Positions 2-49,269 of a stretch of 64,000 nucleotides of DNA are shown one piece after another. Within the stretch, counting starts at the first letter, position 1, and the number at the start of each line of letters is the position of its first letter. A program made the translations under genes and the position numbers. The stretch comes from Bacteroidota bacterium (GTDB lineage Bacteria > Bacteroidota > Bacteroidia > Chitinophagales > Saprospiraceae), in assembly GCA_039194925.1 (NCBI GenBank), contig JBCCVV010000006.1, forward strand, positions 205 through 64,204, read 5' to 3'. Under the pieces are notes generated by a model, which had not been told where the DNA came from, searched no databases, and saw only the letters and a program-made list of their open reading frames with translations.

Positions 2-460
2 GCACCAGAAGAAGAGCGTCTGGCTATGATGCCTCCATCCTATTGTAGTTCTTCTGGTTCAAATTTTAGTTACGAATATATTTCAAACGTCCAAATTGGT
101 ACACTAAACAACAGTTCTGCCGGCTCAAGTTATACTGACTATACCAGTATTGTAACGGATCTTCAGGCAGGACAGGTTTATACGATTACCATTACTCCGG
201 GTTGGCCCGGAAGTAGTTATAATGAAGGGTATGGTGCCTGGATTGATCTCAATCAAGATGGTGATTTCGATGATCCTGATGAACAAATTGCTTTGATTGA
301 TCCTACAAATTCCTCTACAGTCACCAGCACATTTCTACTCTCCAATATCGCGACGACAGGACAAACGAGGATGCGGGTATCCATGAAATATAATGATGCA
401 CCAACCTCATGTGAAACTTTTAATTATGGGGAGGTTGAAGATTATACGATCAATATTTTG
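2..460 (+). other. GEVED domain (partial at 5' end) of ORF1
   Basis: GYGAWIDLNQDGDFDD ... MRVSMKY ... CETFNYGEVEDYTINI, the signature C-terminal GEVED motif. Confidence 0.7.
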
Positions 461-3400
461 GCGCCTAATTCTGCTCTTTGTAATACGGAATGTACAACAC
501 CTTATTACTTCAATTGGTACGACGGAACAAGTGGTGCTGAATGGGCAATTACCAACGGTGAAACTTCTGTACAGAATGTATATACGGTCTCAGGGGATCA
601 AGGTGATTACAATGTTACCGTTACCATGAGTAACCCTGATGGTCAAAATATCGATTTTTCGAATTGTGCAGTGCCTTTGGAAAGAGCATACACAGCAACC
701 TGTAATGATCCTAATGGTGATGCCAATTGTGATGGGGACAATGGAACCACAGATAGTCAATTTTCGTACGGTTGTGGTTATCTTACCTTTGGTGTAACGT
801 CAAATAATAGTTCAGAATATACATCCATAACCTATGAATTCGAATTTCCTGCTTACATCTGTGGATTGGAAATTGGTGATATTGATTATGCTGGCGCCTC
901 TTATCCGAGTTTGACCAGTTATCAGGATGAAGTAGATGTAGTAGCGGACAGTATGGGAGTTCCGGTTGTTATAAATGCTGCTGTAGGGCCTGCAGTAGAT
1001 GTTTATAACAATAATACTACTGCGGTTAAGTTACTTGCGGAATATACGAACCCATATTCAGGAGATATACTGCCCAATGATCCGGCAGGACATGCATATA
1101 TTACTACGGCTAATCGGGTAACATCAATAACGTTTACGTATTCGAATGGTCCTGATGATGAAGGGCAAAGTGATGACCACGCCATCCGATTGGCAGGATT
1201 TGATTTTTGTCCTACCAGCCAAGTCGAAATCTGTGTCAATGGTATTGACGATAATGCTAATGGTTATATCGATAATTTTGACCCTGGATGTCCGCTTTAT
1301 GCACCCTTTGATTGTGACAAAACTTTATTTCAAACCCGTTCTCCCGACAATGGTTCTACGTACTATCTGGATACGATTACCCGATCTCCTGTGACATTTA
1401 ACCAATTGCATAACCTTACTGCAAATGGGATGACAGCCGCTGGATTTAATGCTACTGCGTATAACCCACAAGATCGATATATTTATGGTTTAAATCCTTT
1501 GAAATCAGATAGTTATCAAATGTATCGAATTAATGCCCTTGGCGCAGTACAGTTCATTGGAAACGTGACTGGTTTGACGGGGACAAATGATGCAGGTGCT
1601 TTTTCTCAAGATGGCAGGTATTATGTCTTTGGAGCAAGCGGTAGATTGTATGAAATCGATATATTTTCCTACGCTGCTAATGAGATAGCAAATCTTGGAT
1701 TTGCCGGAGGAGATATAGTAGTCAATCCAGCAGATGGGCTGATATACACCTGGAATAGTGATGCCAATCAATTGTACTCAATTGATCCCTCCAACGGGAA
1801 TGCCACTGCCATAGGTTCTCCGAACTCACAATACACCGAATTTGGTTCTCTTTTTGCCAATGAGCAAGGAGATATTATTGGATATGGGAATGATGCAAAC
1901 GTCACTGGAACCAGTCAGGAAACATTGGTGAGTATCAATCCTGCTACAGGCATTGTTACTCCGATTGAAGTGGGACCTGAAGTTACGTATAATGATGGAT
2001 GCTCATGCGCATTTGGAGTGGGTATGACGAAAGAAGCATCAGTCAGTGTAGTAGAACCTGGAAATTCACTGACATATACTTTTAATGTATACAACCGAAC
2101 CGATAGTATCTTAACGAATTTGACATTTATTGATAATTTGCCTACGGGATTGACATTTAGTTCAAATCCTTATAATGTTACTGGAATGTCTCTGGGTTCT
2201 GCCAGTATAAGTGGAAGTAGTTCGGCTAATTTTACCATCAATTCTCTGGCCCCTGGGGTTAATTCATTTATGGTGGATGTATCTATTCCTTTGACTTTTT
2301 GTAGTGACATCGAGAATCAGGCCAGAATAGAAGGTTTGCCTTCAAGTTTGGGGTCTGCAATAGTATCAGATGATCCATCCACAGGTGAAATTGCTGATGC
2401 AACAACCACTTTGATCAGCAATTGTGAGGAATATTGGATTGAGGCAGAGTGTGAACAAGTAGGAGCCAATTGGAATGTAGTGGTAGATTCTACTGCATCC
2501 AGATATAGTTATGCTTCTATTATGACCGGATTTAATTCTTTAGGTTCTGCACCTACCGGAGCAGATGATAGAATTAGATTTAATGTAACGATTACCAATG
2601 CAGGAAATTATAACATCTTTGCTCGAGTGTTAGCTCCAAATTCAAGTGATGATTCCTTTTGGGTAAGAGCGAATGGTGGAACATGGTACAGATGGAATGG
2701 TTTGAATGATTTTGCCGCAAGTGATTGGGCTTGGGGTCAAGTCTGGAATTCTGATGCAGGAAATGCAGTGGTAACCTTCCCTCTCGTATCTGGAGCAAAT
2801 ACCATTGATATTGCCTATCGTGAAGATGGAACTCGACTGGATAAGATCAAGGTAGCCTTGAACAATCAAGTACCAACCGGAGAGGGTGGAATATCTACGA
2901 ACTGTCCTGAGATATGTGATAATGGAGAAGATGACGATGGAGATGGTCTGGTAGATTGTGCTGATGACGACTGCGGTGGTGAAGCAGTTTGTCAAGGTCC
3001 ATGTATTCCAGAGAAACTATTCGTAGAAAGATGGTTTGGAATAAGTGGAACTGCAATTACAGATTTGACCTCTCATCCGAATTATCCTAATTCTCCTGAT
3101 GAATTGGATTACATTGATTTGTTTCAGGGGCCCAATGGTTATGCAGATAATTACGGAACACGCGTAAGAGGTTTTGTAATCCCAAATGAATCCGGAACTT
3201 ATACATTTAATGTTACGGGAGATGATAACACAGTATTGTACCTCAGTACAGATGTAAATGAAACCAATAAAACGGAGATAGCCTCTGTAACTGGATGGAG
3301 CGGCGTAACAGAACACAATAAATACGCAGTTCAGACCTCGGTCGACATCGAATTATTGGCAAATGTCTGGTACTATGTCGAACTCCTTGTAAAAGAAGGA

Positions 3401-6400
3401 ACCGGTGGTGATCATTTCCAGGTATATTGGAGAACTCCAAGTCAACCTTCAACATGGAATATTATACCTGGAACGCAATTGGCACCTTTTATTTGTCCTG
3501 AAATATGCGATAACGGTGAGGATGATGATAACAATGGTCTTACAGATTGTTTGGATCCATATTGTGAAAATGGGGTAAATGTCTATATCACCTCAGCAGA
3601 TAATGTCATATGTCTAGGTGAATCTGCAACGCTGGATGCCGAATTTTTAGGTAGTCCCGGTACATTGACCTATGCTTGGTCGAATGGGGCAGGATCTGCT
3701 AGTACCGCCAATGTAAGTCCAAATGTTACAACTACTTATGTGGTGACCGTTACCAATACTAATGGATGTACTGCGACAGATCAAATGGTTGTGACGGTAA
3801 ATGATTTACCAACGGCGGGAGCTTCTAATGATGGCCCGATTACTTGTAGTCAACCGATTGTTAGACTTGCAGCTACTCCAGTTGGTATGAGTTACTTATG
3901 GCCTGGGGGTGAAACGACACAGACTGCAGATATTACGGTTGCCGGAACTTATATAGTTACGGTTACAGACAGTAATGGATGTACAGATACTGCATCAACC
4001 GTTGTAACAGACGATATAGTGCCACCTGTTGCCGATGCTGGGGCAGATGTGGCAATCTGTTTTGGCGAAAGCACTAATTTAACGGCCTCGGGAGGTGGAT
4101 CATATGCCTGGTCCAATGGTGCAGGAAATACCGCCGCAGTTAGCGTGAGTCCAACTTCTTCAACGACATACACTGTAACGGTTACTGCTGCTAATGGATG
4201 TACAGATACAGATATGGTTACCGTAACCGTGACACCGCTTCCGGTTTCGAGTATAAATGCTGTCAATACCATATGTGAAGGGACAACAGTTTCAATCAAT
4301 GCAGCAGATGCCGGTGCAGGAGCGACATATTCATGGGATTTTGGCGCCAATGCCACACCTCAGACGGCATCGGGTATTGGGCCTCATGACGTTGTCTACG
4401 ATAATGACCACGTTACTGGAAATGATGTTCAAAACACAATCACATTAGATGTTGTATTGAATGGATGTACGGATCAATTTACCGATAATATTTCTATAGA
4501 TGCGATTCCTGATGTTACGGTTTCAAGTACCTCACCTTCGTGTGGAGTGGATGATGGAACAATAACATTCACTTTTCCAGATAATACATCACGAACAAAT
4601 ATTGAATTTAGTATAGATGGAGGAGCATCTTATCCACATGATTTTTCGGATAATATTGGTTCGGCAACAGTTTCAAGTTTGGCTTCAGGAACGTATGATT
4701 TATATGTACGATGGGGCAATACGAATTGTCCAATAGACCTACCAGACGTAATGCTCAGTGATAATACTGTTCCTACAGCAAATGCCGGATCAGATGATGA
4801 AATATGCATAGGTGAAAATACTACTCTTACAGCTACAGGAGGTACTTCCTATGTTTGGTCGAATGGAGCTGGTAGTACAGCATCGGTTAATGTAAGCCCC
4901 ACAACTACAACTACATATACAGTTACAGTGACCGCTGCAAATGGTTGTACAGCCGAAGATAATGTTACGGTTACCGTACATGCATTACCGGTGGTTTCCG
5001 CATCCAATGACGGACCCATTACGTGTAGTCAACCAAATGTAATCCTAACAGCCTCACCTGCGGGAATGACTTATGCATGGCAAGGAGGAGGAAGCAATCA
5101 GACTAAAACTGTATCCGCTACCGGTAGCTATTCTGTGACCATAACTGATGCAAATGGTTGTACCAATGTTGCTAGTACAACAGTAGCTATAGATACGATT
5201 TCGCCCACTGCGAATGCTGGAGCAGATAATGAAATATGTATAGGAGAAAACACAACCCTCACCGCTTCGGGAGGAGTATCATATATTTGGTCAGACGGAG
5301 CGGGTAGTACAGCTTCAGTTAATGTAAGCCCAACTACAACAACTACTTATACTGTGACAGTAACCGCTGCAAATGGCTGTACAGCCGAAGATAATGTTAC
5401 AGTTACTGTACACGCATTACCGGTGGTTTCCGCATCCAATGACGGCCCCATCACGTGTAGTCAACCAAATGTAATCCTAACAGCCACACCTGCGGGAATG
5501 ACTTACGCATGGCAAGGAGGAGGAAGCAATCAGACAAAAACGGTAACAACTACCGGTAGCTATTCTGTGACGATTACGGATGCCAATGGTTGTACGAATG
5601 TAGCTACAACAATTGTAACCGATGATTTGACACCTCCAGCGGCAGATGCTGGATCAGATGATGAAATATGTATAGGTGAAAGCACAACCCTCACCGCTTC
5701 GGGAGGCATTGCTTATTCTTGGTCTAATGGAGCTGGGAGTACAGCCTCAGTTAATGTGAGTCCAACGATAACAACTACGTATACCGTGACCGTAACTGCT
5801 GCAAATGGATGTACTGCTGAGGATGATGTTACAGTTACCGTGCACGCATTGCCGGTGGTTTCGGCTTCCAATGATGGCCCTTTGACCTGTGCCCAGACTA
5901 GTGTGATCTTAACGGCTTTACCTGCAGGGATGACCTATTCCTGGGATACTGGCGGAAGTAACCAAACTGAAACGGTAACAAGTACAGGAACCTATTCCGT
6001 GACGATTACAGATGCCAATGGTTGTACGAATGTGGCAACTACAGTGGTAACAGATGATCTTACCACACCAGTAGCGGATGCTGGATCCGATGTTGAGATT
6101 TGTATAGGAGAAAGTACAACGCTTTCTGCTTCAGGAGGTATAGCTTATATTTGGTCAAACGGAGCAGGAAATACAGCTTCTGTAACTGTAAGTCCAACAA
6201 CGACAACAACATATACAGTCATTGTTACAGCTGCAAATGGGTGTCAGGATATTGATGATGTCACCGTAACCGTAAATCCCCTGCCAACAGTAGGTGCTAC
6301 AAATGATGGTCCATTAACGTGTGTACAAAATAATGTTATCCTTAGCGCAACTCCAGCAGGGATGACCTATTCCTGGGATACTGGTGGAAGCAATCAGACT

Positions 6401-9400
6401 GAAACAGTCACCACTACAGGAATTTATTCCGTTACCGTGACTGATGCAAATGGTTGTACGAACGTTGCGAATACAACGGTAGCCATTGATACAATTTCAC
6501 CAACTGCCAATGCTGGATTAGATGATGAAATATGTATCGGAGAAAGTACAACACTTACAGCAACGGGAGGTGTATCATATGAATGGTCGAATGGAGCCGG
6601 AAATACGGCTTCTGTTAATGTAAGCCCAACAACAACAACTGTGTATGTGGTTACGGTTACCGCAGCAAATGGTTGCACGGATGAAGATAATGTTACAGTC
6701 ACCGTACATGCATTGCCAGTAGTTTCCGCTTCAAATGACGGACCCATTACGTGTAGTCAACCAAATGTAATCTTGTCGGCAACGCCCACAGGAATGACTT
6801 ATGCATGGCAAGGTGGTGGAAGCAATCAAACCAAGACTGTAACGGCTACAGGAAGCTATTCTGTCACGATAACTGACAGTAATGGCTGTACAAATGTTGC
6901 TACTACAATTGTAACAGATGATTTAACAAATCCAATTGCGGATGCCGGGTTGGATGACGAAATATGCATAGGAGAAAGTACTACTCTTACAGCTTCTGGA
7001 GGGGTGTCGTATGAATGGTCCAACGGAGCAGGCAACACCACATCTGTTACGGTAAGCCCTACAATAACTACGACATACACCGTAACTGTAACTGCAGCGA
7101 ATGGATGTCAAGACACCGATGATATTATTGTTACGGTGAATCCTTTACCGATCGTAGGTGCTACAAATGATGGCCCATTGACATGTGCTCAAAATAGTGT
7201 CATCTTAACTGCCACGCCAGCAGGGATGATATATTCCTGGGACACAGGTGGAAATAACCAGACAGAAACAGTTACCAGTACAGGAACATATTCGGTTACG
7301 GTAACTGATGCCAATGGCTGTACAAATGTGACTAGCACAACAGTAGCAATTGACACTATCTCACCCACTCCCGATGCTGGAATGGATGATGAAATATGCA
7401 TTGGAGACAATATAAACCTCACGGCCACTGGAGGAATATCCTACGTCTGGTCTGAAGGAGCAGGTACTACAGCTACAGTTAATGTAAGTCCGGTGACTAC
7501 GACTACCTACGTGGTGACGGTGACCGGTGCAAATGGCTGTACCTCTGAAGATAATGTGACGATTACAGTACATCCGTTGCCGATTGTATCAGCCTCAAAT
7601 GATGGACCAATCACATGTAGTCAACCAAATGTAATACTTACTGCATTTCCAGCAGGAATGACTTACGAATGGGAAGGTGGCGGAAGCAATCAAACTAAAA
7701 CCGTATCTGCCACAGGTACCTATTCTGTAACCATTACCGACGCAAATGGCTGTAGAAATGTGGCTAGTACAACAGTAACAGATGATCTTATACCCCCAGT
7801 TGCGAATGCTGGAACAGATACGGAAATATGTATTGGAGAAAGTACAAACCTTACAGCTTCAGGAGGTGTATCTTATGCATGGTCGGATGGAGCGGGTAGT
7901 TCGTCATCTGTAAGTGTAAGTCCAACTACAACGACAACATATACCGTCACGGTGACTGCTGCAAATGGCTGTCAGCATACGGATGATGTAATAGTTACAG
8001 TAAATCCTTTGCCTATCGTAAGCGTTACAAATGATGGTCCATTGACGTGTGCTCAAAACAGTGTCATCTTGACTGCTACACCCGCAGGGATGTTGTATTC
8101 CTGGGACACTGGCGGAAGCAATCAGACCGAAACGGTAACAGCAACAGGTACATATTCAGTAACGATCACTGATGCGAATGGCTGTACAAATGTTGCTAAT
8201 ACAACGGTATCTATTGATACGATTTCTCCTAATGCCAATGCAGGGTTGGATGACGAGATATGTATAGGAGAAAATACAATCCTTACGGCTTCCGGCGGTG
8301 TATCGTATGAATGGTCTGAAGGTGCTGGAAATTCAGCATTGGTGACAGTAAGTCCTACAACGACGACAACCTATACGGTAACAGTGACTGCTTCCAATGG
8401 ATGTACAGATGAAGACTACGTTACAATAACAGTACACCCTTTACCAGTAGTGTCGGCTTCAAATGATGGACCGATTACTTGTAACCAACCAAATGTGATC
8501 CTTACGGCATTCCCGGCAGGAATGACTTACGAATGGGAAGGCGGCGGAAGCAATCAAACTAAAACAGTATCTGCCACAGGTACGTATTCTGTTACGATAA
8601 CGGATGCCAATGGCTGTAGAAATGTGGCTTCCACCACAGTGACGGATAATGTTGATCCACCAATTGCCGAGGCTGGGCCGGATGATTTAATATGCGAAGG
8701 ATTAAGTACTGATTTAACCGCAACTGGAGGCGTATCTTATGAATGGTCTCACAGTGCGGGAAATACAGCGTCAGTAACCGTAAATCCCACCTCAACCACA
8801 ACATATACGGTAACTGTAACTGGTGCGAATGGTTGTACGGCCGAAGATAATGTCACGGTATCCGTTGACCCCAAACCAACTGTCGGAATCTCTGGTTCGG
8901 ATATAATTTGTATTCAAACGACGACTACCTTGTCTCCAAACTCTGGTGGTACATGGCGAAGTAGTGATAATAGTATAGCCATAGTTTCCAGTTCGGGAAT
9001 AGTCTATGGATTGACACCGGGTACAGCTTCTTTTATTTTTACAAGCTCTGCAACGGGTTGTGAATCGGATACTACTGCAGAAGTGATAGTTACACCCAAT
9101 ATTTCAGTTGATATTGATTTTTCTGGTGGAATTTGCCTTGAAGATGACTCAGAGTTGACTGCAAATGTCACAGGTGGAACATTGAATTTCACTTACAATT
9201 GGTCAGGTCCAAATGGATTTACAGCCAATACTCAGGTAATCGATGCAAATGTTTCCGGCAACTATTACGTAACGGTAACCGATGCAGCAGGATGTAGCGA
9301 TAATACATCAGCATATATCTACGCAGCATACGAACCTTTCATTTTTACATTAAGTACGGAAGTTTGTGAAGATGAAGATGTAACCTTATCCGTAAATTCT

Positions 9401-16339: not shown

Positions 16340-16348
16340 ATGGTTCAA

Positions 16349-16386
16349 AAGTTAGGAAATGTAAACTACTTTGCATTTCCTAACTT
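16349..16386 (+). terminator. Hairpin 10 nt after the ORF1 stop
   Basis: aagttaggaaatg (16349-16361) pairs perfectly with catttcctaactt (16374-16386), giving a 13-bp stem and 12-nt loop. There is no U-tract. Confidence 0.55.
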
Positions 16387-16444
16387 CAAACGTAAACCAC
16401 TGGCATATAATGACTTCTGATAGTTTCTTCCCTCCTTTGTTGAG

Positions 16445-16452
16445 TATTTTTG
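16445..16452 (+). promoter_or_regulatory. Candidate Bacteroidota -7 box (TAnnTTTG) upstream of ORF2
   Basis: TATTTTTG is an exact match to TAnnTTTG, 150 nt upstream of the ATG at 16602. No good TTTG -33 element lies at the expected spacing. Confidence 0.25.
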
Positions 16453-16601
16453 AATTGTGAATATTACAACTCCCTTACCTCGTTGTAATTAGTGTTTGGT
16501 TGAGTGATTTGTCCTGACTTACCTATAAGGACTTTACCAGGTCACTTGATTCTTCTTACTTAACAGGTAGTATTGGGAGTTATAATCAAGACACCGATAA
16601 T

Positions 16602-25649: not shown

Positions 25650-25668
25650 TAAAAAATATAAATGTAAG

Positions 25669-25736
25669 ATACTTTACAAAGTATAATTTCTTTCGTAAAG
25701 TATTGGGCATAAAGCAGTTGAAAGGATTTTATGCCC
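25669..25736 (+). terminator. Two consecutive hairpins after the ORF2 stop
   Basis: atactttac (25669-25677) pairs with gtaaagtat (25695-25703). gggcataaa (25705-25713) pairs with tttatgccc (25728-25736). Both are perfect 9-bp stems. Confidence 0.5.
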
Positions 25737-25946
25737 CTATTTAGAATTAGATTTATGGTTGAAAATTTGACCAGAAAATTGCTGGATTGAAACACAGCAG
25801 CATGTTCTGTAATTCATCTTATTGATTGGTTTTGAAAGCCAGTCTGGGTTATTTGATGTACCGAGAAACTTACCATTTCTTTCAAATAATTAAAATTAAA
25901 GGACGAGTTACATAAGGACAAGTAGGGCACATGTTTTCAACTTAAT

Positions 25947-28900: not shown

Positions 28901-31900
28901 ATATGACTGCTGCTCTCAAGCTACTGCCACAGTGAATATATCTGCAGCAAGTATAGCCAATTCAAATCCTACATTATGTGCTGGATCAGGTTTTGCCACG
29001 CTGACTGCAAGTGATAATTCTTCGAGCTTGAATTATAGCTACGCATGGGGGCATACGACTGAAACAACATCGCAGGTAATCGTGAGTCCTACGGCGACTA
29101 CAACATATACAGTTACTGTCACAAATGATCAAGGGTGTATGAATACAGCAGAGACTACTGTTACGGTATTGCCCGACTTGGATGTGGACATTGATTATAG
29201 TGGTGAATTATGTTTAGAAGATAATACTCAATTATCTGCTTTAGTTAAGGGAGGTTCTGCACCATTCTCATACGCTTGGGCTGGACCAAATTCATTTACT
29301 GCCAATACCGATGTTATCACCATTCCTGAAAGTGGAAACTATAGCGTAACTGTAACTGATACACAGGGATGTACCGGACAATATTCGGCATTTGTATATG
29401 AAGCGTATGCTCCGTTAATCTTTGCATTGAATACAGAAGTCTGCGAAGGAGAGAGTGTAACCCTTTCTATAAATTCGGGAAGTGCGGTTCAATTTAATTG
29501 GGGTGCAAATGCAGGAAATGCAACTTCTTCTTCCGTAACTGTTACACCATCACCTCCATCCACGGATTATATGGTTACGGTTACCAATGATTTGGGATGT
29601 ACCTCAGAAGCTACGGCTACGATTAATGTTACTCCCAGGCCTGAAGTCTATTTTACGGGTGCAAATCCGATTTGCGTAGGTGAGACAACAACGTTGGAAC
29701 CAAACACTGGAGGTACATGGATAAGTACCAATAGTGCAGTAGCTTTGATTAATGATTTAGGTCAGGTGACAGCCGTATCCCCAGGTACTGTGAATTTTAT
29801 TTTTACCGATACCACGACTTTGTGTGAATCACTTCCCACTGCCGATTTGATCGTAAACCCAAGACCTACAGTCGAGGTAACAGGACCCACGTCTATTTGT
29901 GAAGGATTTACTTCTCAATTGTCACCAACAACTGGAGGTGTATGGATGAGCAATGATCCTACCATTGCCACTGTAAACAATAATGGTACAGTAATAGGTG
30001 TAAGTGAAGGAAGTACAACCTTCTACTTTACAAACTCCATTTCCGGATGTACATCTGATGATACACAACCCATAACGGTCAACGAAGTGCCCACTGCAAC
30101 AATAACGGGTGCTTCTAATCTGTGCATTGGTTCAACAACTACGTTATCACCTACTACGGGTGGTACCTGGACCAGTACAAATACTTCCGTCGCAACAGTA
30201 TCAAATGGAGGTATTGTTCAGGCAATTGCGACAGGAACGGCATCTTTCGCGTTTACCTCAAGTTTTGGCTGTGTATCACAACCAACCGAAGAAATTGTAG
30301 TAAACGATACACCTATTATATCTGTAACTGGAGAATCAGTAATTTGCGAAGGAGAAACCGCCACGTTAACGGTTTCCGGTGCAGATGCATATGTCTGGTC
30401 TACGGATGAGACAACCGAGTCAATCTTTGTAAGTCCTACCACCAATACGATATATGAGGTAACAGGATATAATGCAATAGGAACTGCCAGAAACCTGGTT
30501 ACGGAAGTAAATGGTTTTGATAATTCTAATTTTACATTTATCAATTCAACCAACTCTTATGCCGGGGCTGCCAGCTTGTTTGATGGAGTTGATAACACCA
30601 GTTCGGCAACTTTTCATGCCAGCCGTACGAATGCCGGTCAGACATGGGGTATTGGGTATAGTCTACAAACCGATTTTTTTATTGACCGTGTTGGTTTGGA
30701 TCGACGAAACGATTGTTGTACCACCAGAGCTCATGGAGGTGTGGTAGAGATATACAATGATGGCGAGCTTGTATTTACGAGCAACATTTTAACAGGAAGT
30801 GGTAATGGTGAACTGTATTGCAGCCCAAACCCAAATGTTGTTGGTGATGAAATAAGATATGTGTTTTTGAATGGTGTGAACAATGAAGATGGGAGTGGAA
30901 CCTTGAATTTTTCAGAATGGATTATAGAAGGACGAGATTATTGTGAGGTGCAAGAAAGTTTTACAGTAGGTGTCAATACTACTCCTACCGTTAATATTTC
31001 TGGTTCTACAACGTTATGTGTGGGAGAATCTACACAGCTTACAACGGATGCCTCCGGAGGGTTTTGGACAAGTAGTGATCCAAGTATAGCCATTGTATCC
31101 TCTACTGGTGTTGTAGTGGGGATTGGAGAAGGTTCAGTATCTTTTACATATACCGGAGCCAATGGATGTGAATCGGACGGCACTGGAATGATAACGATTG
31201 ACCCTGAAGTTGAAGTTGAAGTAGATTTCAATGGATCAATTTGTCTTACAGAAGATTCTCAATTAAGCGCAATTGTTAATAGTGGAACGGCGGGTTACAC
31301 TTATGCATGGATAGGGCCTGGCGGATTTGCCTCGTCGCAACAGACCATCGATATTTTGATCAATGGAAATTATAATCTTACGGTTACCGATTCCAAAGGA
31401 TGCAGTTCTAATACAACCGCCTTTGTTTACGAGGCGTATGAGCCATTTATCTTTGCCTTGAATACAGAAGTATGTGAAGGAGAAGAGGTAACACTTTCCG
31501 TTAACTCTTCATCCGCTGCCACTTATCAATGGGGAGTAAATGCTGGGAATGCTACAACTCAATCGGTAACGGTTACTCCTGGATTGCCTGCTACGACTTA
31601 TTTTGTCACTGTAACCAATAGTATAGGATGTACTACCGAGGCTACTGCAGTAATCAATGTAGAGCCGAAACCAACAGTAAGTATTACTGGTCCAGATGCC
31701 ATTTGTCAAAATGGAACAACTCAGTTATCTCCTTCCACTGGTGGTGTTTGGACGAGTGATGACTATACAGTGGCTACTGTTAGCAATACAGGCCTGGTGA
31801 CAGGAGTTGGAGCTGGAACCACCACGTTTACATTTAGAAGTGATGCCACAGGGTGCTTTTCCGATCCTTCAGAACCCATTACCGTTACAGATAATGCAGC

Positions 31901-34900
31901 CATAACGATCACCGGAGATAATCAAATTTGTATTGGAGATAATCCAATATTAATTGCTTCTGTGTTAGGTGGAAGTTGGAGTAGTAGCAACCTTGGAGTG
32001 GCTCAAATAAGCAGCACGGGAGTAATAACACCCAATGCTCAAGGAAGTGCCATAATAACGTATACGCCCCCTGAGGGAGATTGTTATTTTGATGCCACCT
32101 ATGAAATCAATGTGCATGAATCACCCAATCTTAGCATTAATGGTCCGTCTACCATTTGTGAAAACGATGTCACTTATCTTAGTGCATCAACAAATGGATC
32201 ATGGACAAGTAGTGATCCAGGTATAGCCACCGTATCTTCTACAGGAGTGGTGACAGGGGTAAGTGATGGAACGGTTACTTTCTCTTTTGTTTCCTCTGCC
32301 GGATGCCCAAAAACATTGGGTACACCAGTAACCGTGATTGGGAATCCTGTAATTAGTTTAAATGGACCTGCGGATATTTGTATAAACTCCACCACATCAT
32401 TACTTCCCAATTCTGGCGGTTTGTGGATGAGCAGTAATACAAACGTAGCGACAGTAAACAGCAATGGAATTGTGACAGGGATTAATCCCGGAATAGCCGC
32501 GTTTACCTTTATTGAGTTTACTTATGGTTGTACCTCTGAAAATACAATATCCATTACCGTGAATGATGATCCTGTGATCAATGGTTTGGATGATAATATT
32601 CTATGTATTGGTGAAACAACCACCATTACACCTTCAACGGGAGGTACGTGGTCTAGCTCAAATAATGCTGTAGCCACTATAGGCAATGATGGAACGATTA
32701 CAGCTATAGGACCCGGGTCAGCCACTTTTACATTTACAGATCTTTTAACTGGATGTACTTCCGAGGCATCCATGCCATTGACTGTGAATAGTAACCCCGA
32801 AACTAACTTTAACGGGCCTACATCTATTTGTGCTGGCGAAACTACTGCTATTTCACCTACAACAGGTGGGGATTGGTCCAGCACAAATGTAGCTGTTGCT
32901 ACAATTACTTCAAACGGGACTATAACAGGTGTGTCACCAGGTACGGTGCAATTTATCTTTACGAATAGCACAACGGGTTGTGTTTCAGACGCCAGTGAAG
33001 TTTTAACGGTTGATGATCCGGTAGATATCCAAGTTACGGGCCCTTCTAACATTTGTATTGGAGAGTCGACAACGTTTACTCCAACTACTGGTGGAACATG
33101 GGAAAGCAGCAATACGAATATCGCAACGATAACCAATAATGGAGTAGTTACAGGAGTAGCTCCTGGAACGGTTTCGTTCACGTTTAATAGTAGTACGGGA
33201 TGTACATCTGATCCTTCAGCTGAGATTACCATTGAAGCCAATCCTTCCATTGAATTCACAGGACCAACCGCAATTTGTATTGGTTCTACGACGACACTTA
33301 CTCCAACATCGGGAGGAGAATGGTCTAGCTCAAATAATGCAGTTGCCACGGTTGACAATAATGGTCTTGTAACTGCCTTAGCTACTGGAACGGCAAATTT
33401 CACGTTTGTTAGTTCGACAACCGGATGTGCATCAACAACAAATACCAATCTAAATGTATACGACAAACCTACAGCAGTCATCTCTGGTGAGAGTCAGATC
33501 TGTATTGGAGAAATGACTAATATGTTGCCTGCAACTGGAGGTACGTGGGTGAGCAGTGATAATGATGTAGCCACGATTGCTTCTAACGGTGTAGTAACAG
33601 CAATCAGTGCAGGAACAGTGACGTTTACCTTTTATGAAACAGGATCGGGTTGCGTTTCCGATGCCTCGGATCCTATAACGGTATTACCTCAACCAACTGT
33701 GGCGATTACGGGAGACAACATTCTTTGCGAGGGAGAAACGACTACGCTTAGCCCTACCTCTGGAGGAGTATGGATCAGTGACAATGAAATGGTTGCTACT
33801 GTGACGGATCAAGGTGTTGTCACGGGACATATGCAAGGATTAGTACGATTTACATTTACTTCCAATGACGGTTGCTCTTCAAATGAAACTTCGCCAGTGA
33901 TTGTTTATGGAAAATCTACGGTTGTTTTGGATAGTCCCAATCTATTGTGTTCAGAAGATACAGGACAAATGTTACCTTCTTCTGGAGGGACCTGGGATTC
34001 GACAGATCCATCTGTAGCTACTATTGATGATAATGGAGTGTTTACGGCTGTCTCGGCTGGTACCGTTCGATTTACATTTACCGATAGTTCGACAGGATGC
34101 ATTTCCGAATTGTCCGATTTGGTTACGGTAAATGAAACTCCTGCAATAAGTATAATTGGACCTACGAATATATGTGTGGGAGGTGTAACCAATCTGGTGC
34201 CAACAACTGGAGGGATTTGGACCAGTTTAAACCCGAGTATTGCAACCATTCAAAATAATGGTGAGGTAACCGGTATAGCTGATGGATCTGCTAGATTCAT
34301 ATTTACCAATGTCGCTACGGGATGTGTTTCGGACACTTCTTCGTACGTAATTGTGGGTTCAGGACCAACGATAACGTTTACTGGACCGCAAGACGTTTGT
34401 ATTGGAGAAACATCGAGCATATCACCTTCAACAGGCGGTACATGGATAAGTACGAATCCTTCAGTGGCAAGCATAGATGATAATGGATTGATAACCGCAA
34501 TAAGTCAAGGTTCTGCTCGATTCATTTATACTGAAACGGCTTCAGGTTGTACTTCCGATCAAAGTGAAACACTAATTGTCAATGGACCACCAACAGTTTC
34601 TGTTTCGGGTTCAAATGCGATTTGTGTGAATAGTACGACCACCTTGTCTCCTTCCAGTGGTGGGACATGGATCAGTTTACATCCTGCAATCGCAGCCGTC
34701 GATGATTTTGGGAATGTCACAGGATTCGCTCCTGGAACTGCATATTTCGTCTTTACGGACAGCGCAACCGGATGTGAATCCGATGGTTCGTTAAGTGTTG
34801 AAATTGAAGATGGAATAGATGTGGGAATAACTGGAGATACAGAAATCTGTATTGGATATTCAACTACACTGTCACCATCTACAGGAGGTTTTTGGACCAG

Positions 34901-36851
34901 TAGTAACCCTGACGTGGCTACTGTAACAAATTCAGGAGTAGTAACCGGAAAAGCACCTGGAATTGTGACTTTTGAATTTGTGGATGGTACAACTGGGTGT
35001 ATTGCGAATGCTCCAACAGATCCAGTTACTGTTGAATTGTGTACGAATCATGATTTCAATGTGACGCTTGTAGGAATGGAAATTCAGGGTAATCTTAGTA
35101 CAAATGATAATGCACCAGCAGGAACCGTTTATAGCAACGCAGCAGTGCAATTGTCCAAACCCTTGGGAAGTCTTCCTTCGCTAACTGTGAATTCTGATGG
35201 TACATACTCATTTACATCTGATCAGGCGGGAAAATATCTTTACCGTGTTCCAGTATGTATTGCACCCATGATAGTTGGTTGTCCGGGAACATACTTAGAG
35301 ATTACCGTAATAGAGAATATTTATTCACAGTTAAATCCAGTAGCGAATTTGGAATTTGCTACAACGTATGCAAATGCGGACCCTTTGTTGGATGGACTAT
35401 CCATGAATATAGATGTTTCCAGCAATGACAAATGTGTGACGGCAGGTAGCTGTAGTCTGGATAATTCAACACTTTCAGTAACTGGTGGTGCCTCAAGAGG
35501 AAGTTACTCGATAATGGGGACTGGGGATATTTTGTATACTCCGAATCCAGGATTTATCGGAAAAGACACAATCTATTATTCTATTTGTGTGGATGGTGAA
35601 CCAACAAATTGCAACAACTCATTGCAGGTTGTAACGATCAATGATGTAAGTGCATTAAATTCAACCGTAGCGGCAGATGATTTCGAATTCACACTGAAAG
35701 AAACCCCTGTAAGTGGAAATGTAATGGACAATGATAGTGACCCGGAAAGTAACGTAATTACAGTCGTATCCCAGGGTAGTTTGATGCTTCCGGTATCAAT
35801 ACCGGAAGGGGAGTACTTTATAGAATCAGATGGTTCATTTACGTTTACTCCTGCAGCTGGATTTTCCGGACCTTTAGAAATTGTTTATACGCTTTGTGAT
35901 AATGCTGCCGAACAAGCATGCACCGATGCAACCATTCATTTACTTGTATTTGATGATATAGCGATCAAATTAAGAGTATATTTGGAAGGGGCTTTAATAA
36001 ATAATAATGGGGATTTTTCCATCATATCGGGACGACCACTGATGCGTGATGATTTGAGAATTAGTCCGTTTACGGGAGAGAATTATATACCAGCTTCGGA
36101 TCCCTATAGTTTCGTACATGATCCTTTTGTGAACACCCCTGCAATGTTTGTAAAGATGGGACCTGGTTTAATCAGTAAAAACACAGCAATTTCAGATTCT
36201 GCGGGAGTTTTCTCAGTCTCAGGTGACAATGCCATAGTGGATTGGGTACACGTAGAATTGAGGTCCAAAGATGATCCTACCGTTCCCATTGCTACAAGAT
36301 CGGGATTATTACAGCGTGATGGTGATGTAGTCGATTTGGATGGAGTGAGTGACTTGCGATTTGACGGGGTCAGTGCGGATAGCTTCTATGTGAAAGTCAA
36401 ACATCGTTCACATTTAGCAGCAATGTCCATGAAGGTCGCCAGCGATCAGTTAATAGATTTTACAGATCCAAACTTTGAAGTATTTAATCATGGATCGAGT
36501 TATGATGCGACATTCAATTATACAGGCTTGTCGCAAAAGGAGAATATAGTTCCTGGATATACGGCGCTTTGGGCTGGTGATTTTGATTCCAACGGGCAGG
36601 TCAAATTTACAAATCCAAATGATGACCTTAATATTTTATTCCTTGATGTTTTATTTAGCTCACCGGAGTTTTTGATCAACTACAATGACGCGATCGGATA
36701 TTTTACGGGGGATTATAATATGAATAGTAAAGCGAAATATACGAATCCAGATGATGATACAAACCTTTTGTTCGGTCAACTACTATTGTACCCATTGAAT
36801 ACAAGCTTTTTGTCCAATTTCAATGGTCTGATCGAACAAGTTCCAGAGTAA
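25947..36851 (+). CDS. Giant modular surface protein, paralog 3 (3634 aa): signal peptide, MAM, unknown Cys-rich module, CBM4_9-like, unknown module, Ig/SprB/Big_2-like repeats with a discoidin-like insert, then the conserved 3' block
   Basis: Complete ORF. It starts MDETI like ORF2 (MEETI). An alternative start at 26004 (MQNTLWFAFLLFAVGYTTAC) would give a canonical short signal peptide. Confidence 0.92.
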   Translation: MDETIMLMNSCKYPYVAKFMQNTLWFAFLLFAVGYTTACSNPTSTFPIVEDFETNALVNWTQDSGDDFNWSINTGATTSGSTGPSGAYSGSYYAYTEATTPNNPNKIANLISPCFTVQSGTTTQISFAYHMYGNGQGTFNLDISTNDGSSWTTLWSLSGNQGDVWRVQSLNLNPYIGQDVLLRFHVETNSYQSDVAIDDVVLTTSSTGEICDDGIDNDGDGLIDEYDPDCGVVCYNDCETPYTFDWFDGSGSGAVWNITNGQSSLTRVYTISGSQGEYNVSVTLDNPDGQNIDFTNCGTPGGTSHFYTGTCNDPNGNTNCDGDPNTNDSQFTYGCDFLTFGITSDNGDQKTSFTYDFEFPSQICNMLIGDIDHQGWAFNSQDSWQDEVEVVAMNNGVPVAINAVVGSKVNVFNNNTDSLVLISEYNGTLTGDLVHTDPDGHATITTLDKVTSIKFTYSNGPDDDGPSNDHAIRINGFEFCPEEKVEICNNEIDDDDDGLVDCEDIDCGMLDNIEFKDGTANWNLYNQSVNQSTFTIDNTGQISGNNSARIDITEIGSQEWFTIFEQNGASIESGKTYRIHFSAKANISREIQVLVQKTGFPFTTYFIQDVPIANFNGEYVYEFTATTSDNSVDLTFHLGQALGTVWLDKIQLKEVCPDPECILPSDDGFDICSGEVLSGTVSTNDAAPTNYFNTVYQVTTPPSNGNVVMQDDGSFVYTPDSGAAGTDNFVYERCYSFKNDVGLSNLIYNPCGEGKIIETFMEGIEGETNPSIAITNPTDFSRIFVEVWAESSCSSVTIEGQVATENIIYRSNGSPDTERIYRVELNSVSTDGLIDISSTGGCTLSSAAAYVERVQPSGQGSSSLVISDIDLFYNYVGGDDCFIYSMPIGTSDTNRDITFVIPLHEKDNTRNVTAKVIAGSVSEIDSTSSWSAIGEGAGVIEITLSNVPGSVNVATIEVCSPNGNGDSFGVGIISATSLICTAEPVYDCCSQATATVNISAASIANSNPTLCAGSGFATLTASDNSSSLNYSYAWGHTTETTSQVIVSPTATTTYTVTVTNDQGCMNTAETTVTVLPDLDVDIDYSGELCLEDNTQLSALVKGGSAPFSYAWAGPNSFTANTDVITIPESGNYSVTVTDTQGCTGQYSAFVYEAYAPLIFALNTEVCEGESVTLSINSGSAVQFNWGANAGNATSSSVTVTPSPPSTDYMVTVTNDLGCTSEATATINVTPRPEVYFTGANPICVGETTTLEPNTGGTWISTNSAVALINDLGQVTAVSPGTVNFIFTDTTTLCESLPTADLIVNPRPTVEVTGPTSICEGFTSQLSPTTGGVWMSNDPTIATVNNNGTVIGVSEGSTTFYFTNSISGCTSDDTQPITVNEVPTATITGASNLCIGSTTTLSPTTGGTWTSTNTSVATVSNGGIVQAIATGTASFAFTSSFGCVSQPTEEIVVNDTPIISVTGESVICEGETATLTVSGADAYVWSTDETTESIFVSPTTNTIYEVTGYNAIGTARNLVTEVNGFDNSNFTFINSTNSYAGAASLFDGVDNTSSATFHASRTNAGQTWGIGYSLQTDFFIDRVGLDRRNDCCTTRAHGGVVEIYNDGELVFTSNILTGSGNGELYCSPNPNVVGDEIRYVFLNGVNNEDGSGTLNFSEWIIEGRDYCEVQESFTVGVNTTPTVNISGSTTLCVGESTQLTTDASGGFWTSSDPSIAIVSSTGVVVGIGEGSVSFTYTGANGCESDGTGMITIDPEVEVEVDFNGSICLTEDSQLSAIVNSGTAGYTYAWIGPGGFASSQQTIDILINGNYNLTVTDSKGCSSNTTAFVYEAYEPFIFALNTEVCEGEEVTLSVNSSSAATYQWGVNAGNATTQSVTVTPGLPATTYFVTVTNSIGCTTEATAVINVEPKPTVSITGPDAICQNGTTQLSPSTGGVWTSDDYTVATVSNTGLVTGVGAGTTTFTFRSDATGCFSDPSEPITVTDNAAITITGDNQICIGDNPILIASVLGGSWSSSNLGVAQISSTGVITPNAQGSAIITYTPPEGDCYFDATYEINVHESPNLSINGPSTICENDVTYLSASTNGSWTSSDPGIATVSSTGVVTGVSDGTVTFSFVSSAGCPKTLGTPVTVIGNPVISLNGPADICINSTTSLLPNSGGLWMSSNTNVATVNSNGIVTGINPGIAAFTFIEFTYGCTSENTISITVNDDPVINGLDDNILCIGETTTITPSTGGTWSSSNNAVATIGNDGTITAIGPGSATFTFTDLLTGCTSEASMPLTVNSNPETNFNGPTSICAGETTAISPTTGGDWSSTNVAVATITSNGTITGVSPGTVQFIFTNSTTGCVSDASEVLTVDDPVDIQVTGPSNICIGESTTFTPTTGGTWESSNTNIATITNNGVVTGVAPGTVSFTFNSSTGCTSDPSAEITIEANPSIEFTGPTAICIGSTTTLTPTSGGEWSSSNNAVATVDNNGLVTALATGTANFTFVSSTTGCASTTNTNLNVYDKPTAVISGESQICIGEMTNMLPATGGTWVSSDNDVATIASNGVVTAISAGTVTFTFYETGSGCVSDASDPITVLPQPTVAITGDNILCEGETTTLSPTSGGVWISDNEMVATVTDQGVVTGHMQGLVRFTFTSNDGCSSNETSPVIVYGKSTVVLDSPNLLCSEDTGQMLPSSGGTWDSTDPSVATIDDNGVFTAVSAGTVRFTFTDSSTGCISELSDLVTVNETPAISIIGPTNICVGGVTNLVPTTGGIWTSLNPSIATIQNNGEVTGIADGSARFIFTNVATGCVSDTSSYVIVGSGPTITFTGPQDVCIGETSSISPSTGGTWISTNPSVASIDDNGLITAISQGSARFIYTETASGCTSDQSETLIVNGPPTVSVSGSNAICVNSTTTLSPSSGGTWISLHPAIAAVDDFGNVTGFAPGTAYFVFTDSATGCESDGSLSVEIEDGIDVGITGDTEICIGYSTTLSPSTGGFWTSSNPDVATVTNSGVVTGKAPGIVTFEFVDGTTGCIANAPTDPVTVELCTNHDFNVTLVGMEIQGNLSTNDNAPAGTVYSNAAVQLSKPLGSLPSLTVNSDGTYSFTSDQAGKYLYRVPVCIAPMIVGCPGTYLEITVIENIYSQLNPVANLEFATTYANADPLLDGLSMNIDVSSNDKCVTAGSCSLDNSTLSVTGGASRGSYSIMGTGDILYTPNPGFIGKDTIYYSICVDGEPTNCNNSLQVVTINDVSALNSTVAADDFEFTLKETPVSGNVMDNDSDPESNVITVVSQGSLMLPVSIPEGEYFIESDGSFTFTPAAGFSGPLEIVYTLCDNAAEQACTDATIHLLVFDDIAIKLRVYLEGALINNNGDFSIISGRPLMRDDLRISPFTGENYIPASDPYSFVHDPFVNTPAMFVKMGPGLISKNTAISDSAGVFSVSGDNAIVDWVHVELRSKDDPTVPIATRSGLLQRDGDVVDLDGVSDLRFDGVSADSFYVKVKHRSHLAAMSMKVASDQLIDFTDPNFEVFNHGSSYDATFNYTGLSQKENIVPGYTALWAGDFDSNGQVKFTNPNDDLNILFLDVLFSSPEFLINYNDAIGYFTGDYNMNSKAKYTNPDDDTNLLFGQLLLYPLNTSFLSNFNGLIEQVPE
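26061..26565 (+). other. MAM domain of ORF3
   Basis: CSNPTSTFPIVEDFE..WTQDSGDDFNWS...TGPSGAYSGSYYAYTEAT...ANLISPCFT...ISFAYHMYGNGQGTFNLDIS...VAIDDVVL. Confidence 0.75.
26644..27390 (+). other. Uncharacterised Cys-rich module (ORF3 copy of 479-1215)
   Basis: CYNDCETPYTFDWFDG...NPDGQNIDFTNC...CNDPNGNTNCDGD...SQFTYGC...IGDIDH...FTYSNGPDDDGPSNDHAIRINGFEFCP. Confidence 0.6.
27471..27912 (+). other. CBM4_9-like carbohydrate-binding module of ORF3
   Basis: NIEFKDGTANWNLYNQ...GNNSARIDITEIGSQEWFTIFEQNGASIESGKTYRIHFSAKA...VDLTFHLGQALGTVWLDKIQL. Confidence 0.5.
30470..30935 (+). other. F5/8 type C (discoidin)-like module inserted in the ORF3 repeat run
   Basis: SLFDGVDNTSSATFHASRTNAGQTWGIGYSLQTDFFIDRVGLDRRNDCCTTRAHGGVVEIYNDGELVF...IRYVFLNG...LNFSEWIIEG. 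Confidence 0.5.
31200..36851 (+). repeat. Paralogous 3' block, copy 3
   Basis: Same module order and unit count as the other two copies. Confidence 0.85.
35951..36848 (+). other. Conserved C-terminal module (ORF3 copy)
   Basis: DDIAIKLRVYLEGAL...AIVDWVHVELRSKDD...WAGDFDSNGQVKFTNPNDDLNILF...TGDYNMNSKAKYTNPDDDTNLLFGQLLLYPLNTSFLSNFNGLIEQVPE. Confidence 0.8.
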
Positions 36852-36878
36852 TACACAGACACCTTTTTTAATTCTCCA

Positions 36879-36919
36879 GGACCGTATTAGGGTGACTGCC
36901 TTGATGCGGTTCTTTTTTT
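36879..36919 (+). terminator. Rho-independent terminator after ORF3
   Basis: ggaccgtat (36879-36887) pairs with atgcggttc (36904-36912), 9 bp including 2 G-U pairs and extendable inward. It is immediately followed by T7 (36913-36919). Confidence 0.7.
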
Positions 36920-36921
36920 AA

Positions 36922-37078
36922 GATCGGATAGATTTGAAAGGTTCGAAAGATTGGTGAGGACGGAAATTATTGAATGGAGTTTCGCGGAAAAGGTACGGAG
37001 AACCAAAGAGGAAAATATCATCTAACATAGTGAAGCCTTAGTATAGCTTAGTGAGATTCGTGGTTATAAAAAAGAATG
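36922..37078 (-). repeat. Dispersed composite intergenic element, copy A (minus orientation)
   Basis: Read on the minus strand: ...aaccacgaatctcactaag... then ggttctccgtaccttttccgcgaaa... then tcaccaatctttcgaacctttcaaatc. The sub-block order matches 58041-58142 and 62560-62755. Confidence 0.45.
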
Positions 37079-37094
37079 CACACCAAAGACAATT

Positions 37095-49044: not shown

Positions 49045-49269
49045 TCACTTCTATAGCTGTGAAGTTACATGATGTATTTATGGCATGAAAATACAGAGTT
49101 TGATACGACTTCGACGAAAGGAGAGATATATGACAGGGCTCGATAAATTGATGTTTTTCAATACGAATTTTTGAATAAAGTATAATCCTATTGATGGTCC
49201 TACAAACCCAGAAAAATCAGTGTGTTCTCCAGCTATTTCCGTACTTATGCGTTATACAGAAAAAAAGAA

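Follow-up and report, generated by a model that had tools for sequence, protein, structure and literature searches.

How do giant surface proteins of Bacteroidota cross the outer membrane and stay on the cell if they carry none of the known type IX secretion system (T9SS) tails? Adhesins of this kind, built from immunoglobulin (Ig)-like repeats, bring gliding, filamentous and predatory Bacteroidota into contact with surfaces, prey and each other, and, to our knowledge, all those characterised depend on a T9SS C-terminal domain (CTD) for export and anchoring. The question is raised here by a 64,000-nucleotide (nt) stretch of the Saprospiraceae contig JBCCVV010000006.1 (hereafter, the window), which represents nearly the whole 64,387-nt contig. 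Three giant open reading frames (ORFs), ORF1 to ORF3, carry different N-terminal heads on a common C-terminal block of about 1,873 amino acids (aa), the chassis, whose last 300 aa make up a module that we call CTD300.

A length-conserved chassis in three old paralogues

The original prediction, made from the DNA letters, had three same-strand giant ORFs filling positions 2–36851, and its coordinates and spacers (262 nt between ORF1 and ORF2, 297 nt between ORF2 and ORF3) were reproduced (Table 1). The 36.8 kb of giant ORFs contain no internal stop, and the 5′ end of ORF1 is missing because the contig ends inside it. ORF2 is identical to the NCBI protein MEM9544650.1, annotated as 'MAG: Ig-like domain-containing protein [Bacteroidota bacterium]' (MAG, metagenome-assembled genome); the exact ORF3 sequence has no entry in the protein collection searched.

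Counted from a (V/I)D(Y/F) landmark, the distances to the stop are 5631, 5619 and 5622 nt in ORF1, ORF2 and ORF3, exactly as predicted, as are the landmark coordinates. BLASTP returns a single colinear C-terminal alignment for each pair (ORF1/ORF2, 51% identity over 1962 columns; ORF2/ORF3, 59% over 1947; ORF1/ORF3, 46% over 2699), and a three-way MAFFT alignment has only 14 gap-bearing columns after the landmark, with identity rising from about 40–60% in the stalk to 74–77% over the final 90 residues. Each chassis is ordered as two SprB/Ig_7-like units, 15 two-Cys Big_2 units, about three cadherin-like repeats and CTD300, and contains 43 Cys at positions that match in all three proteins. The expected colinearity of the 3′ blocks and of their 15 two-Cys units was therefore borne out by pairwise alignment. 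A proposed SprB-like cassette fared less well: it is located at the landmark, but the best matches to Pfam SprB (PF13573), both in ORF1, reach 27.1 and 18 bits against a cut-off of 28, and none is reported in ORF2 or ORF3.

The Big_2 units are about 75 aa long, with their Cys spaced by 50 residues within and 25 between units. Pfam scores for Big_2 (PF02368) reach 146.8 bits per 600–700-aa segment, with 4–8 matched stretches in each, and by these tandem matches the chassis is a predicted adhesin-type array of Big_2 repeats. For 35 of the 45 units the best match is the same-numbered unit of a paralogue; units at equal positions are 52.8% identical, those at other positions 41%. Because units resemble their positional counterparts most closely, the array is older than the triplication and has not been homogenised since.

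To place the chassis in a wider context, we used 79 CTD300-bearing loci (L numbers) from a scan of GTDB representative genomes, counting chassis length from the landmark-equivalent residue to the C terminus. The block recurs outside the source genome, with differing heads, in at least nine other Saprospiraceae loci (L001, L003, L006, L007 and L009–L013) at 39–59% identity and at the same length (1868–1878 aa), conserved to within about five residues. In L017, L019 and L020, proteins of about 2,000–2,050 aa consist of a signal peptide, a domain of about 180 aa that we call NTD-X, and the chassis. The best CTD match in the GTDB representative genomes is 72%. In L001, a Saprospiraceae MAG chromosome of 8.07 Mb, the locus is syntenic with the window: behind an ORF3-like gene come SIS/MurQ-like, sodium:solute symporter and uracil phosphoribosyltransferase genes that are 77–86% identical to those of the window. 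In L002, a CTD and a spacer precede an ORF3 orthologue, and the head of this orthologue aligns colinearly for 1,490 aa at 66% identity. Over such an evolutionary distance, then, both the tandem arrangement and the heads have been stable.

The same data bear on whether the triplet, or the giant ORFs themselves, could be chimeric or collapsed repeats, a concern for a metagenome-assembled contig that ends inside ORF1. DNA identity among the three genes is at most about 70% and the longest common exact word is 18–22 nt, which excludes a collapsed-repeat artefact and recent gene conversion; judged from their sequences, the genes are old paralogues. With the open frames throughout, copies of an internal 432-nt repeat that are merely about 72–74% identical, and a like tandem arrangement with a syntenic ORF3 orthologue in independent MAGs, assembly collapse or chimerism is ruled out for practical purposes, and we regard an artefact as extremely improbable.

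A constant length at such sequence divergence could also have a structural cause. Among characterised proteins, GhpA of Aureispira comes closest in lifestyle and taxonomy. This heptameric 5,898-aa protein has a Sec signal, carries an adhesin module distally at its N terminus and contains 52 disulfide-bearing Ig-like repeats; its C-terminal T9SS domain is at the outer membrane, by the PorP/PorE homologues GhpB and GhpC (bioRxiv 10.1101/2024.01.29.577165). Compared by description, the triplet resembles GhpA in its Saprospiraceae origin, its size class and a stem built of short Ig-like repeats whose disulfides are conserved, whereas it has CTD300 instead of a T9SS sorting domain and has no GhpB/GhpC-like neighbours. 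The paralogues might co-assemble, as GhpA chains do, into one fibre with different heads; chassis length would then be fixed to a few residues because the chains would align side by side. At about 3.5–4 nm per domain, some 20 Ig-like domains would give a length of roughly 70–80 nm. Such a fibre would account for the invariant length both within the genome and between genomes, for the conserved Cys pairs of the ~75-aa Ig-like units, and for the parallel with a GhpA stem of seven parallel chains and inter-domain disulfides in an organism that is likewise Saprospiraceae-like. However, no PorP or PorE gene lies downstream among the scanned window ORFs, unlike ghpBC, the T9SS tail is missing, and purifying selection on a diverged, no longer recombining array could also keep the length, so that we consider an in-register fibre quite unlikely.

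CTD300 matches no known secretion tail

CTD300 is the best-conserved part of the three proteins (64–65% pairwise identity, 80% mean column identity). It has no match in Pfam, even at E ≤ 10, in NCBIfam, including the models for T9SS types A, B and C, or among PDB sequences, whether searched as single sequences or as a profile (E ≤ 10). The type A CTD (PF18962/TIGR04183) is absent from the last 400 aa of each ORF (NCBIfam E ≤ 0.1, Pfam E ≤ 10); likewise, the three ORFs have no match to the type B CTD (CHU_C, PF13585/TIGR04131) in Pfam or NCBIfam, or to the type C CTD (NF033708, ChiA-like) at E ≤ 0.1. Positive controls (two window proteins, 50715–51944 and 58220–59503, and the NTD-X protein P0121) were recognised, and with Foldseek negative as well, a known T9SS tail hidden in CTD300 was ruled out, in keeping with the original prediction that this tail is not a T9SS CTD. 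The two window controls are a BD-FAE-type esterase with a type A tail (minus strand) and a protein of 427 aa that ends in a CHU_C (type B) tail (plus strand). The organism therefore uses the T9SS, and the three giants are without its known tags.

Known T9SS tails span roughly the final 100 residues, as Ig-like domains or conserved regions (PMC10202324). CTD300 resembles them in its strict C-terminal position on secreted Bacteroidota proteins and, on proteins headed by NTD-X, is mutually exclusive with type A tails. It differs in being about 300 aa long, partly helical and unmatched by models or by Foldseek, a search in which the T9SS CTD of an NTD-X protein was readily found.

These differences separate the triplet from the best-known giant adhesins of the phylum. 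RemA ends in a type A CTD, SprB in one of type B, and the gene for SprB is clustered with that of its SprF/PorP partner (PMC10202324). The triplet is comparable to these Flavobacterium johnsoniae proteins as a set of giant, predicted Sec-exported Bacteroidota surface proteins with dozens of Ig-like repeats and SprB-type motifs (sub-threshold here), in an organism with T9SS cargo; unlike them it has neither a type A, B or C tail nor a PorP-like neighbour. No PorP/SprF-family gene was found by Pfam among the window ORFs of at least 150 aa scanned between 37 and 62.5 kb, and no PorP-like conserved neighbour cluster occurs in the 79 related loci. Another class of giant adhesins, exemplified by LapA, MpIBP and SiiE, also bears lectin-type modules on a long, repetitive, Ca-binding Ig-like stalk. 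These lack a Sec signal peptide, end in C-terminal repeats-in-toxin (RTX) repeats and a type I secretion signal, and are retained by their N terminus, in contrast to the triplet, in which ORF2 and ORF3 have Sec signal peptides and no RTX/HemolysinCabind match appears in Pfam or NCBIfam.

Beyond this locus, a search of a 90%-identity database returned 241 CTD300 matches, all 'hypothetical' and from Saprospiraceae or Bacteroidota. A HMMER scan of 1.84 billion representatives found 10,307 proteins at E ≤ 1e-3 (7,413 at E ≤ 1e-10), these roughly 10,300 family members being clusters at 50% identity. GTDB genomes contain at least 576 CTD300 loci, in Saprospiraceae, Chitinophagaceae, Spirosomataceae and Flavobacteriaceae, among which tandem same-strand pairs of carrier genes are common. 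In multi-domain members of up to 7,457 aa, CTD300 is nearly always at the extreme C terminus; a minority of the family consists of a signal peptide and CTD300 alone.

A few members depart from this pattern. P0241 (822 aa), P0242 (789 aa), P0329 (1313 aa) and P0352 (1083 aa) contain two or more complete or partial CTD300 copies per chain, which would be unusual for a pure sorting signal. At three Saprospirales loci (L016:3811–6237, L021:13839–16262 and L023:4083–6506), a stand-alone CTD300 protein adjoins an outer-membrane beta-barrel protein of about 808 aa (CarboxypepD_reg plus OMP_b-brl_3, 59–60% identical between loci); this barrel could be a membrane partner of CTD300, or the pairing could merely be shared synteny. 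L070 (NZ_JAYMYJ010000043.1, 'Candidatus Thiothrix sp. SCUT-1') encodes a 509-aa CTD300 protein although its contig is assigned to a gammaproteobacterium; either the contig is a mis-binned one from Bacteroidota, or the gene was acquired in a rare transfer.

Predicted structure of CTD300

The AlphaFold2 model of CTD300, computed for the ORF2 copy (24747–25646) from an 81-sequence alignment, has a pLDDT of 95.6 and a pTM of 0.93. It shows a beta-sandwich, preceded by an N-terminal arm and followed by two putative Ca-loop-plus-helix repeats, with predicted helices at H224–235 and H268–277, each preceded by a GDF(D/N)xNGKxK...DD loop. Against the PDB, Foldseek gave no match at E ≤ 1e-3. The best matches, all of them weak (4wi0_B, 2b59_B, 4u3s_B and 5m0y_B), are type II X-module–dockerins (XDoc) of the Clostridium thermocellum scaffoldin, a module that anchors the scaffoldin by its C terminus. 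Like the XDoc of CipA/ScaA, CTD300 as modelled would place a beta-sandwich before two Ca-loop-plus-helix repeats (in CTD300, GDFDxNGKxK...DD and a predicted helix) at the C terminus of a very large, scaffold-like protein. CTD300 differs from the XDoc in Ca loops that are about four residues longer than those of canonical dockerins and in the additional N-terminal arm of about 90 aa.

NTD-X is linked to CTD300 in other lineages

Clustering all ORFs of the 79 loci against each other, followed by an iterated hidden Markov model (HMM) search, showed that no neighbour gene is conserved in every locus and that NTD-X genes are the sole frequent one. There are 82 NTD-X copies in the 79 loci, all N-terminal. 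The domain stands at the start of 24 of the 49 complete multi-domain CTD300 proteins, and in 39 of 74 loci a same-strand NTD-X gene follows downstream at 1 kb or less. In nine Flavobacteriaceae loci the protein directly downstream of the giant, of about 270 aa, is a signal peptide, NTD-X and a type A tail. Overall, NTD-X proteins end in CTD300 in 24 cases and in a T9SS type A tail in at least 29, never in both; most of the others are cut off by the end of the locus or have different T9SS-like tails. CTD300 and a type A tail do not occur together in any ORF of the 79 loci. NTD-X has no match in Pfam or NCBIfam, and its model is a beta-sandwich (pLDDT 85).

In Cytophagales, two small NTD-X genes come after the giant CTD300 gene (L029:10897–11460, L032:10915–11478, L034:2885–3448, L066:3617–4183 and L035:4528–5130). 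One product is NTD-X alone (187–200 aa), with a conserved terminal NYANTGTxCxxCN(L/I/V)TAPxLSK motif; the second is about 275 aa long, and its tail escaped the narrow type A HMM.

Two readings of this linkage present themselves. NTD-X may be the commonest head, displayed either directly by a T9SS tail or on a stalk by CTD300, in which case CTD300 would be a further kind of C-terminal anchor. In the other reading, NTD-X would be the receptor on which CTD300 docks. By extension, CTD300 and NTD-X might form an undescribed attachment system across Bacteroidota, based on Ca-dependent binding and with NTD-X on small neighbours that T9SS type A tails attach to the surface; in a variant, CTD300 would be a fourth class of T9SS export signal. 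We think this tentative proposal unlikely.

Heads are mosaics of common modules

The heads are mosaics of common modules in differing orders. Matches above Pfam cut-offs support most of the predicted domains: GEVED, DUF6923 (the predicted propeller-like region), DUF11 and PA14 in ORF1, MAM and PA14 in ORF2, and MAM, CBM_4_9 and Big_9 in ORF3. A discoidin-like insert in ORF3 was located as predicted, but its F5_F8_type_C match reaches 20 bits against a cut-off of 28.2. Module order is swapped between paralogues, in that ORF1 has its CBM-like module before PA14 and ORF2 has PA14 first (60–67% identity). An unnamed module 1 is common to ORF1 and ORF3 (49% identity), and the signal peptide and MAM are common to ORF2 and ORF3 (57–65%). 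A second module that the original prediction had assigned to both ORF2 and ORF3 was not confirmed as common to the two, the best BLAST E value being 0.44.

The claim that everything 5′ of the chassis differs was overstated: the heads do differ, but ORF1 and ORF3 have some 500 further colinear residues, so the 5′ regions are not wholly different. This extra stalk (ORF1 aa 2945–3430, ORF3 aa 980–1474; 47% identity over 499 aa in BLAST) is followed in ORF3 by the discoidin-like insert, which breaks up the ORF1/ORF3 colinearity upstream of the landmark. ORF1 also has the predicted 432-nt tandem array, which Tandem Repeats Finder (TRF) recovers with 72% matches and no indels; Pfam matches within it are to Ig_7 and PKD. 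The notion of interchangeable heads held in part, as the stalk-plus-heads architecture is supported but there is no sign of active exchange, the paralogues being old and the L002 head conserved.

Acidic double-disulfide repeats (NF033662, CxxCDDGxDxDGDGxxDCxDPDC) occur at module borders, at 18270–18350 and 19710–19778 in ORF2, at aa 407–430 of ORF1 and at aa 207–231 of ORF3, and the unnamed modules contain or adjoin them (NCBIfam). Their sequence suggests short linkers that bind Ca and connect the head modules.

All three proteins are strongly acidic (in ORF1, 542 D+E versus 98 K+R). The Bacteroidota O-glycosylation sequon D[ST][AILVMT] is rarer than in shuffled sequences (ORF1, 26 versus 39±5; ORF2, 12 versus 18±4; ORF3, 7 versus 23±4), even though Ser and Thr make up 24–26% of the proteins.

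Several carbohydrate-binding-type modules per chain and a very acidic composition would also suit released matrix proteins, that is, secreted multivalent lectins that cross-link polysaccharides or a sheath while CTD300 mediates Ca-dependent self-association; the existence of stand-alone and duplicated CTD300 proteins fits as well. The strict C-terminal position of CTD300 and its mutual exclusion with T9SS tails are nevertheless typical of sorting or anchoring domains, and a long, rigid stalk of fixed length would be of no obvious use to a free cross-linker. A role as matrix proteins is, in our judgement, decidedly unlikely.

Proposed arrangement at the cell surface

We favour a reading by analogy with known adhesins, which we hold to be on balance probable: the triplet would encode surface adhesins with distal heads, and CTD300 would be a cell-proximal attachment or sorting module. 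These giant, very acidic proteins would be exported through Sec to the cell surface, where the constant chassis would bear the variable N-terminal lectin-like modules (MAM, PA14, CBM_4_9, CBM-like, GEVED, DUF6923 and DUF11) as the distal ligand-binding end. CTD300 would stand in for the T9SS CTD, sorting the protein to the surface, holding it there, or both. It might dock non-covalently on a surface-anchored partner, for which NTD-X is the best candidate, or might itself be an export or attachment signal that has gone unrecognised. The heads are placed distally and CTD300 proximally because of the analogy with SprB and GhpA, and we infer the surface location, polarity, adhesion, attachment role of CTD300 and outer-membrane route. 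Our literature search on a dockerin-like or additional T9SS tail class in Saprospiraceae or Bacteroidota found nothing relevant.

Several observations weigh against this arrangement. No way by which a protein lacking a T9SS tail could cross the outer membrane is known to us. The XDoc match is weak (E 0.03–0.06; TM-score 0.45–0.50 on the target, over about 180 columns), and neither Pfam (PF00404, E ≤ 10) nor a profile search of PDB sequences (E ≤ 10) gives a dockerin signal. An hhalign comparison with a canonical dockerin sequence gave 11.7% probability, over the 13-residue Ca loop alone. With all three negative, dockerin identity at the sequence level is ruled out, and the structural likeness is therefore a lead on a possible mechanism, not evidence of membership in the dockerin family. 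For NTD-X, Foldseek on the whole protein model, a search dominated by the modelled protein's own T9SS CTD, returned this CTD and generic Ig-like folds only, with no cohesin in the top 50, and so does not support a cohesin-like fold. The window contains no NTD-X gene, a marginal match at 49195–49839 being to the signal peptide only, and the closest relatives of the triplet (L001–L013) mostly have no NTD-X gene downstream. The stand-alone CTD300 proteins, moreover, would be better explained by a domain with an activity of its own than by a pure sorting tag.

A final point against it lies at the N terminus. The predicted, hydrophobic signal peptides of ORF2 and ORF3, and that of the L002 orthologue, have a Cys at +1 of the predicted cleavage site (LLA|C, TTA|C and IYA|C), so that an N-terminal lipid anchor is possible. 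The polarity might then be reversed: the proteins would be lipoproteins held by an acylated N-terminal Cys, with the variable modules near the membrane and CTD300 at work on the far end, for instance in Ca-dependent docking to partners that other cells or filaments present. This would make a T9SS tail unnecessary and would suit a CTD300 that is the most conserved part. However, these sites make poor lipoboxes, with D, Y or K at position −4 and L, T or Y at −2. In Bacteroidota lipoproteins an acidic export signal follows the Cys, and none was seen here, with no dedicated test made. Most other complete CTD300 proteins, moreover, have ordinary AQ|x-type signal peptides without Cys, and characterised giant Bacteroidota adhesins are anchored by their C terminus. 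We regard reversed polarity as highly unlikely and retain the arrangement with distal heads.

Further features of the locus

Strong hairpins without T-runs follow the stops of ORF1 and ORF2, which suggests that the giant genes are separate transcription units; none was found after ORF3 (36840–37100). Long antisense ORFs on the minus strand within the giant genes (11788–12405, 22880–23524 and 32522–33481) have comparable counterparts in 17 related loci by ORF clustering, and are most likely by-products of a repetitive Thr/Ser/Gly-rich coding strand and not genes. Outside the triplet, and 17 kb from it, a 1390-aa protein (53841–58013, plus strand) has a Dockerin_1 match of 26.1 bits (cut-off 22.9) at residues 1060–1108 and a weak C-terminal Por_Secre_tail (17.6 bits); it has a dockerin-like module and is a probable T9SS cargo.

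Table 1 Features of the giant-gene triplet, in window positions
Feature	Positions	Strand	Basis or remark
ORF1, giant paralogue 1, at least 5445 aa	2(26)–16339	+	open to window edge; sole stop terminal
ORF1 head modules, whole	230–3568	+	Pfam, paralogue BLAST
ORF1 GEVED	230–454	+	Pfam
ORF1 unnamed module 1	476–1534	+	paralogue BLAST
ORF1 DUF6923, propeller-like	1412–2011	+	Pfam
ORF1 DUF11	2024–2332	+	Pfam
ORF1 CBM-like	2333–2974	+	paralogue BLAST
ORF1 PA14	3002–3568	+	Pfam
ORF1-only 432-nt tandem array, 9 copies, two Ig_7/PKD-like domains per copy	4781–8647	+	TRF
ORF1 extra stalk	8834–10291	+	common with ORF3 28884–30368; absent from ORF2
ORF1 chassis	10700–16339	+	alignment, Cys pattern, Pfam
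ORF1 SprB-like and Ig_7 units	10700–11155	+	
ORF1 15 two-Cys Big_2 units	11156–14515	+	
ORF1 cadherin-like/Big_9 repeats	14516–15436	+	
ORF1 CTD300	15437–16336	+	
Hairpin 10 nt past ORF1 stop, possible terminator	16349–16386	+	17-nt arms, 94% complementary, 4-nt loop
ORF2, giant paralogue 2, 3015 aa	16602–25649	+	sole stop terminal
ORF2 head, whole	16602–19709	+	Pfam, NCBIfam NF033662, sequence
ORF2 signal peptide	16602–16730	+	ends LLA|C
ORF2 MAM	16764–17228	+	Pfam
ORF2 PA14	17241–17804	+	Pfam
ORF2 CBM-like	17727–18350	+	
ORF2 unnamed module 2	18354–19709	+	bordered by acidic double-disulfide repeats
ORF2 chassis	20022–25649	+	
ORF2 SprB-like/Ig_7 units	20022–20477	+	
ORF2 15 Big_2 units	20478–23837	+	
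ORF2 cadherin-like repeats	23838–24746	+	
ORF2 CTD300	24747–25646	+	AlphaFold2-modelled stretch
Two hairpins directly past ORF2 stop	25669–25736	+	arms 12 nt and 9 nt
ORF3, giant paralogue 3, 3634 aa	25947–36851	+	sole stop terminal; orthologues syntenic in L001, L002
ORF3 head plus extra stalk, whole	25947–30872	+	
ORF3 signal peptide	25947–26063	+	ends TTA|C
ORF3 MAM	26097–26558	+	Pfam
ORF3 unnamed module 1	26643–27686	+	
ORF3 CBM_4_9	27477–27863	+	Pfam
ORF3 Big_9	27942–28139	+	Pfam
ORF3 extra stalk	28884–30368	+	
ORF3 weak F5/8 type C insert	30546–30872	+	sub-threshold
ORF3 chassis	31221–36851	+	
ORF3 SprB-like/Ig_7 units	31221–31676	+	
ORF3 15 Big_2 units	31677–35036	+	
ORF3 cadherin-like repeats	35037–35948	+	
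ORF3 CTD300	35949–36848	+	

Significance

The main interest of the locus is not the triplication but the unnamed CTD300 family, its link to NTD-X and the length-conserved chassis. A very large group of proteins is without a known T9SS tail and ends instead in a predicted well-folded 300-aa module that no database names. If CTD300 does bind NTD-X, giants with an N-terminal NTD-X of their own could also chain head to tail, and the invariant chassis would be a fixed-length spacer or an in-register strand of a multi-chain fibre. The natural set of differing heads on a length-conserved stalk makes it possible to ask whether stalk length matters, and cultured carriers (Runella, Spirosoma, Emticicia, Kordia and Winogradskyella) permit experiments on how such proteins cross the outer membrane and are retained there.

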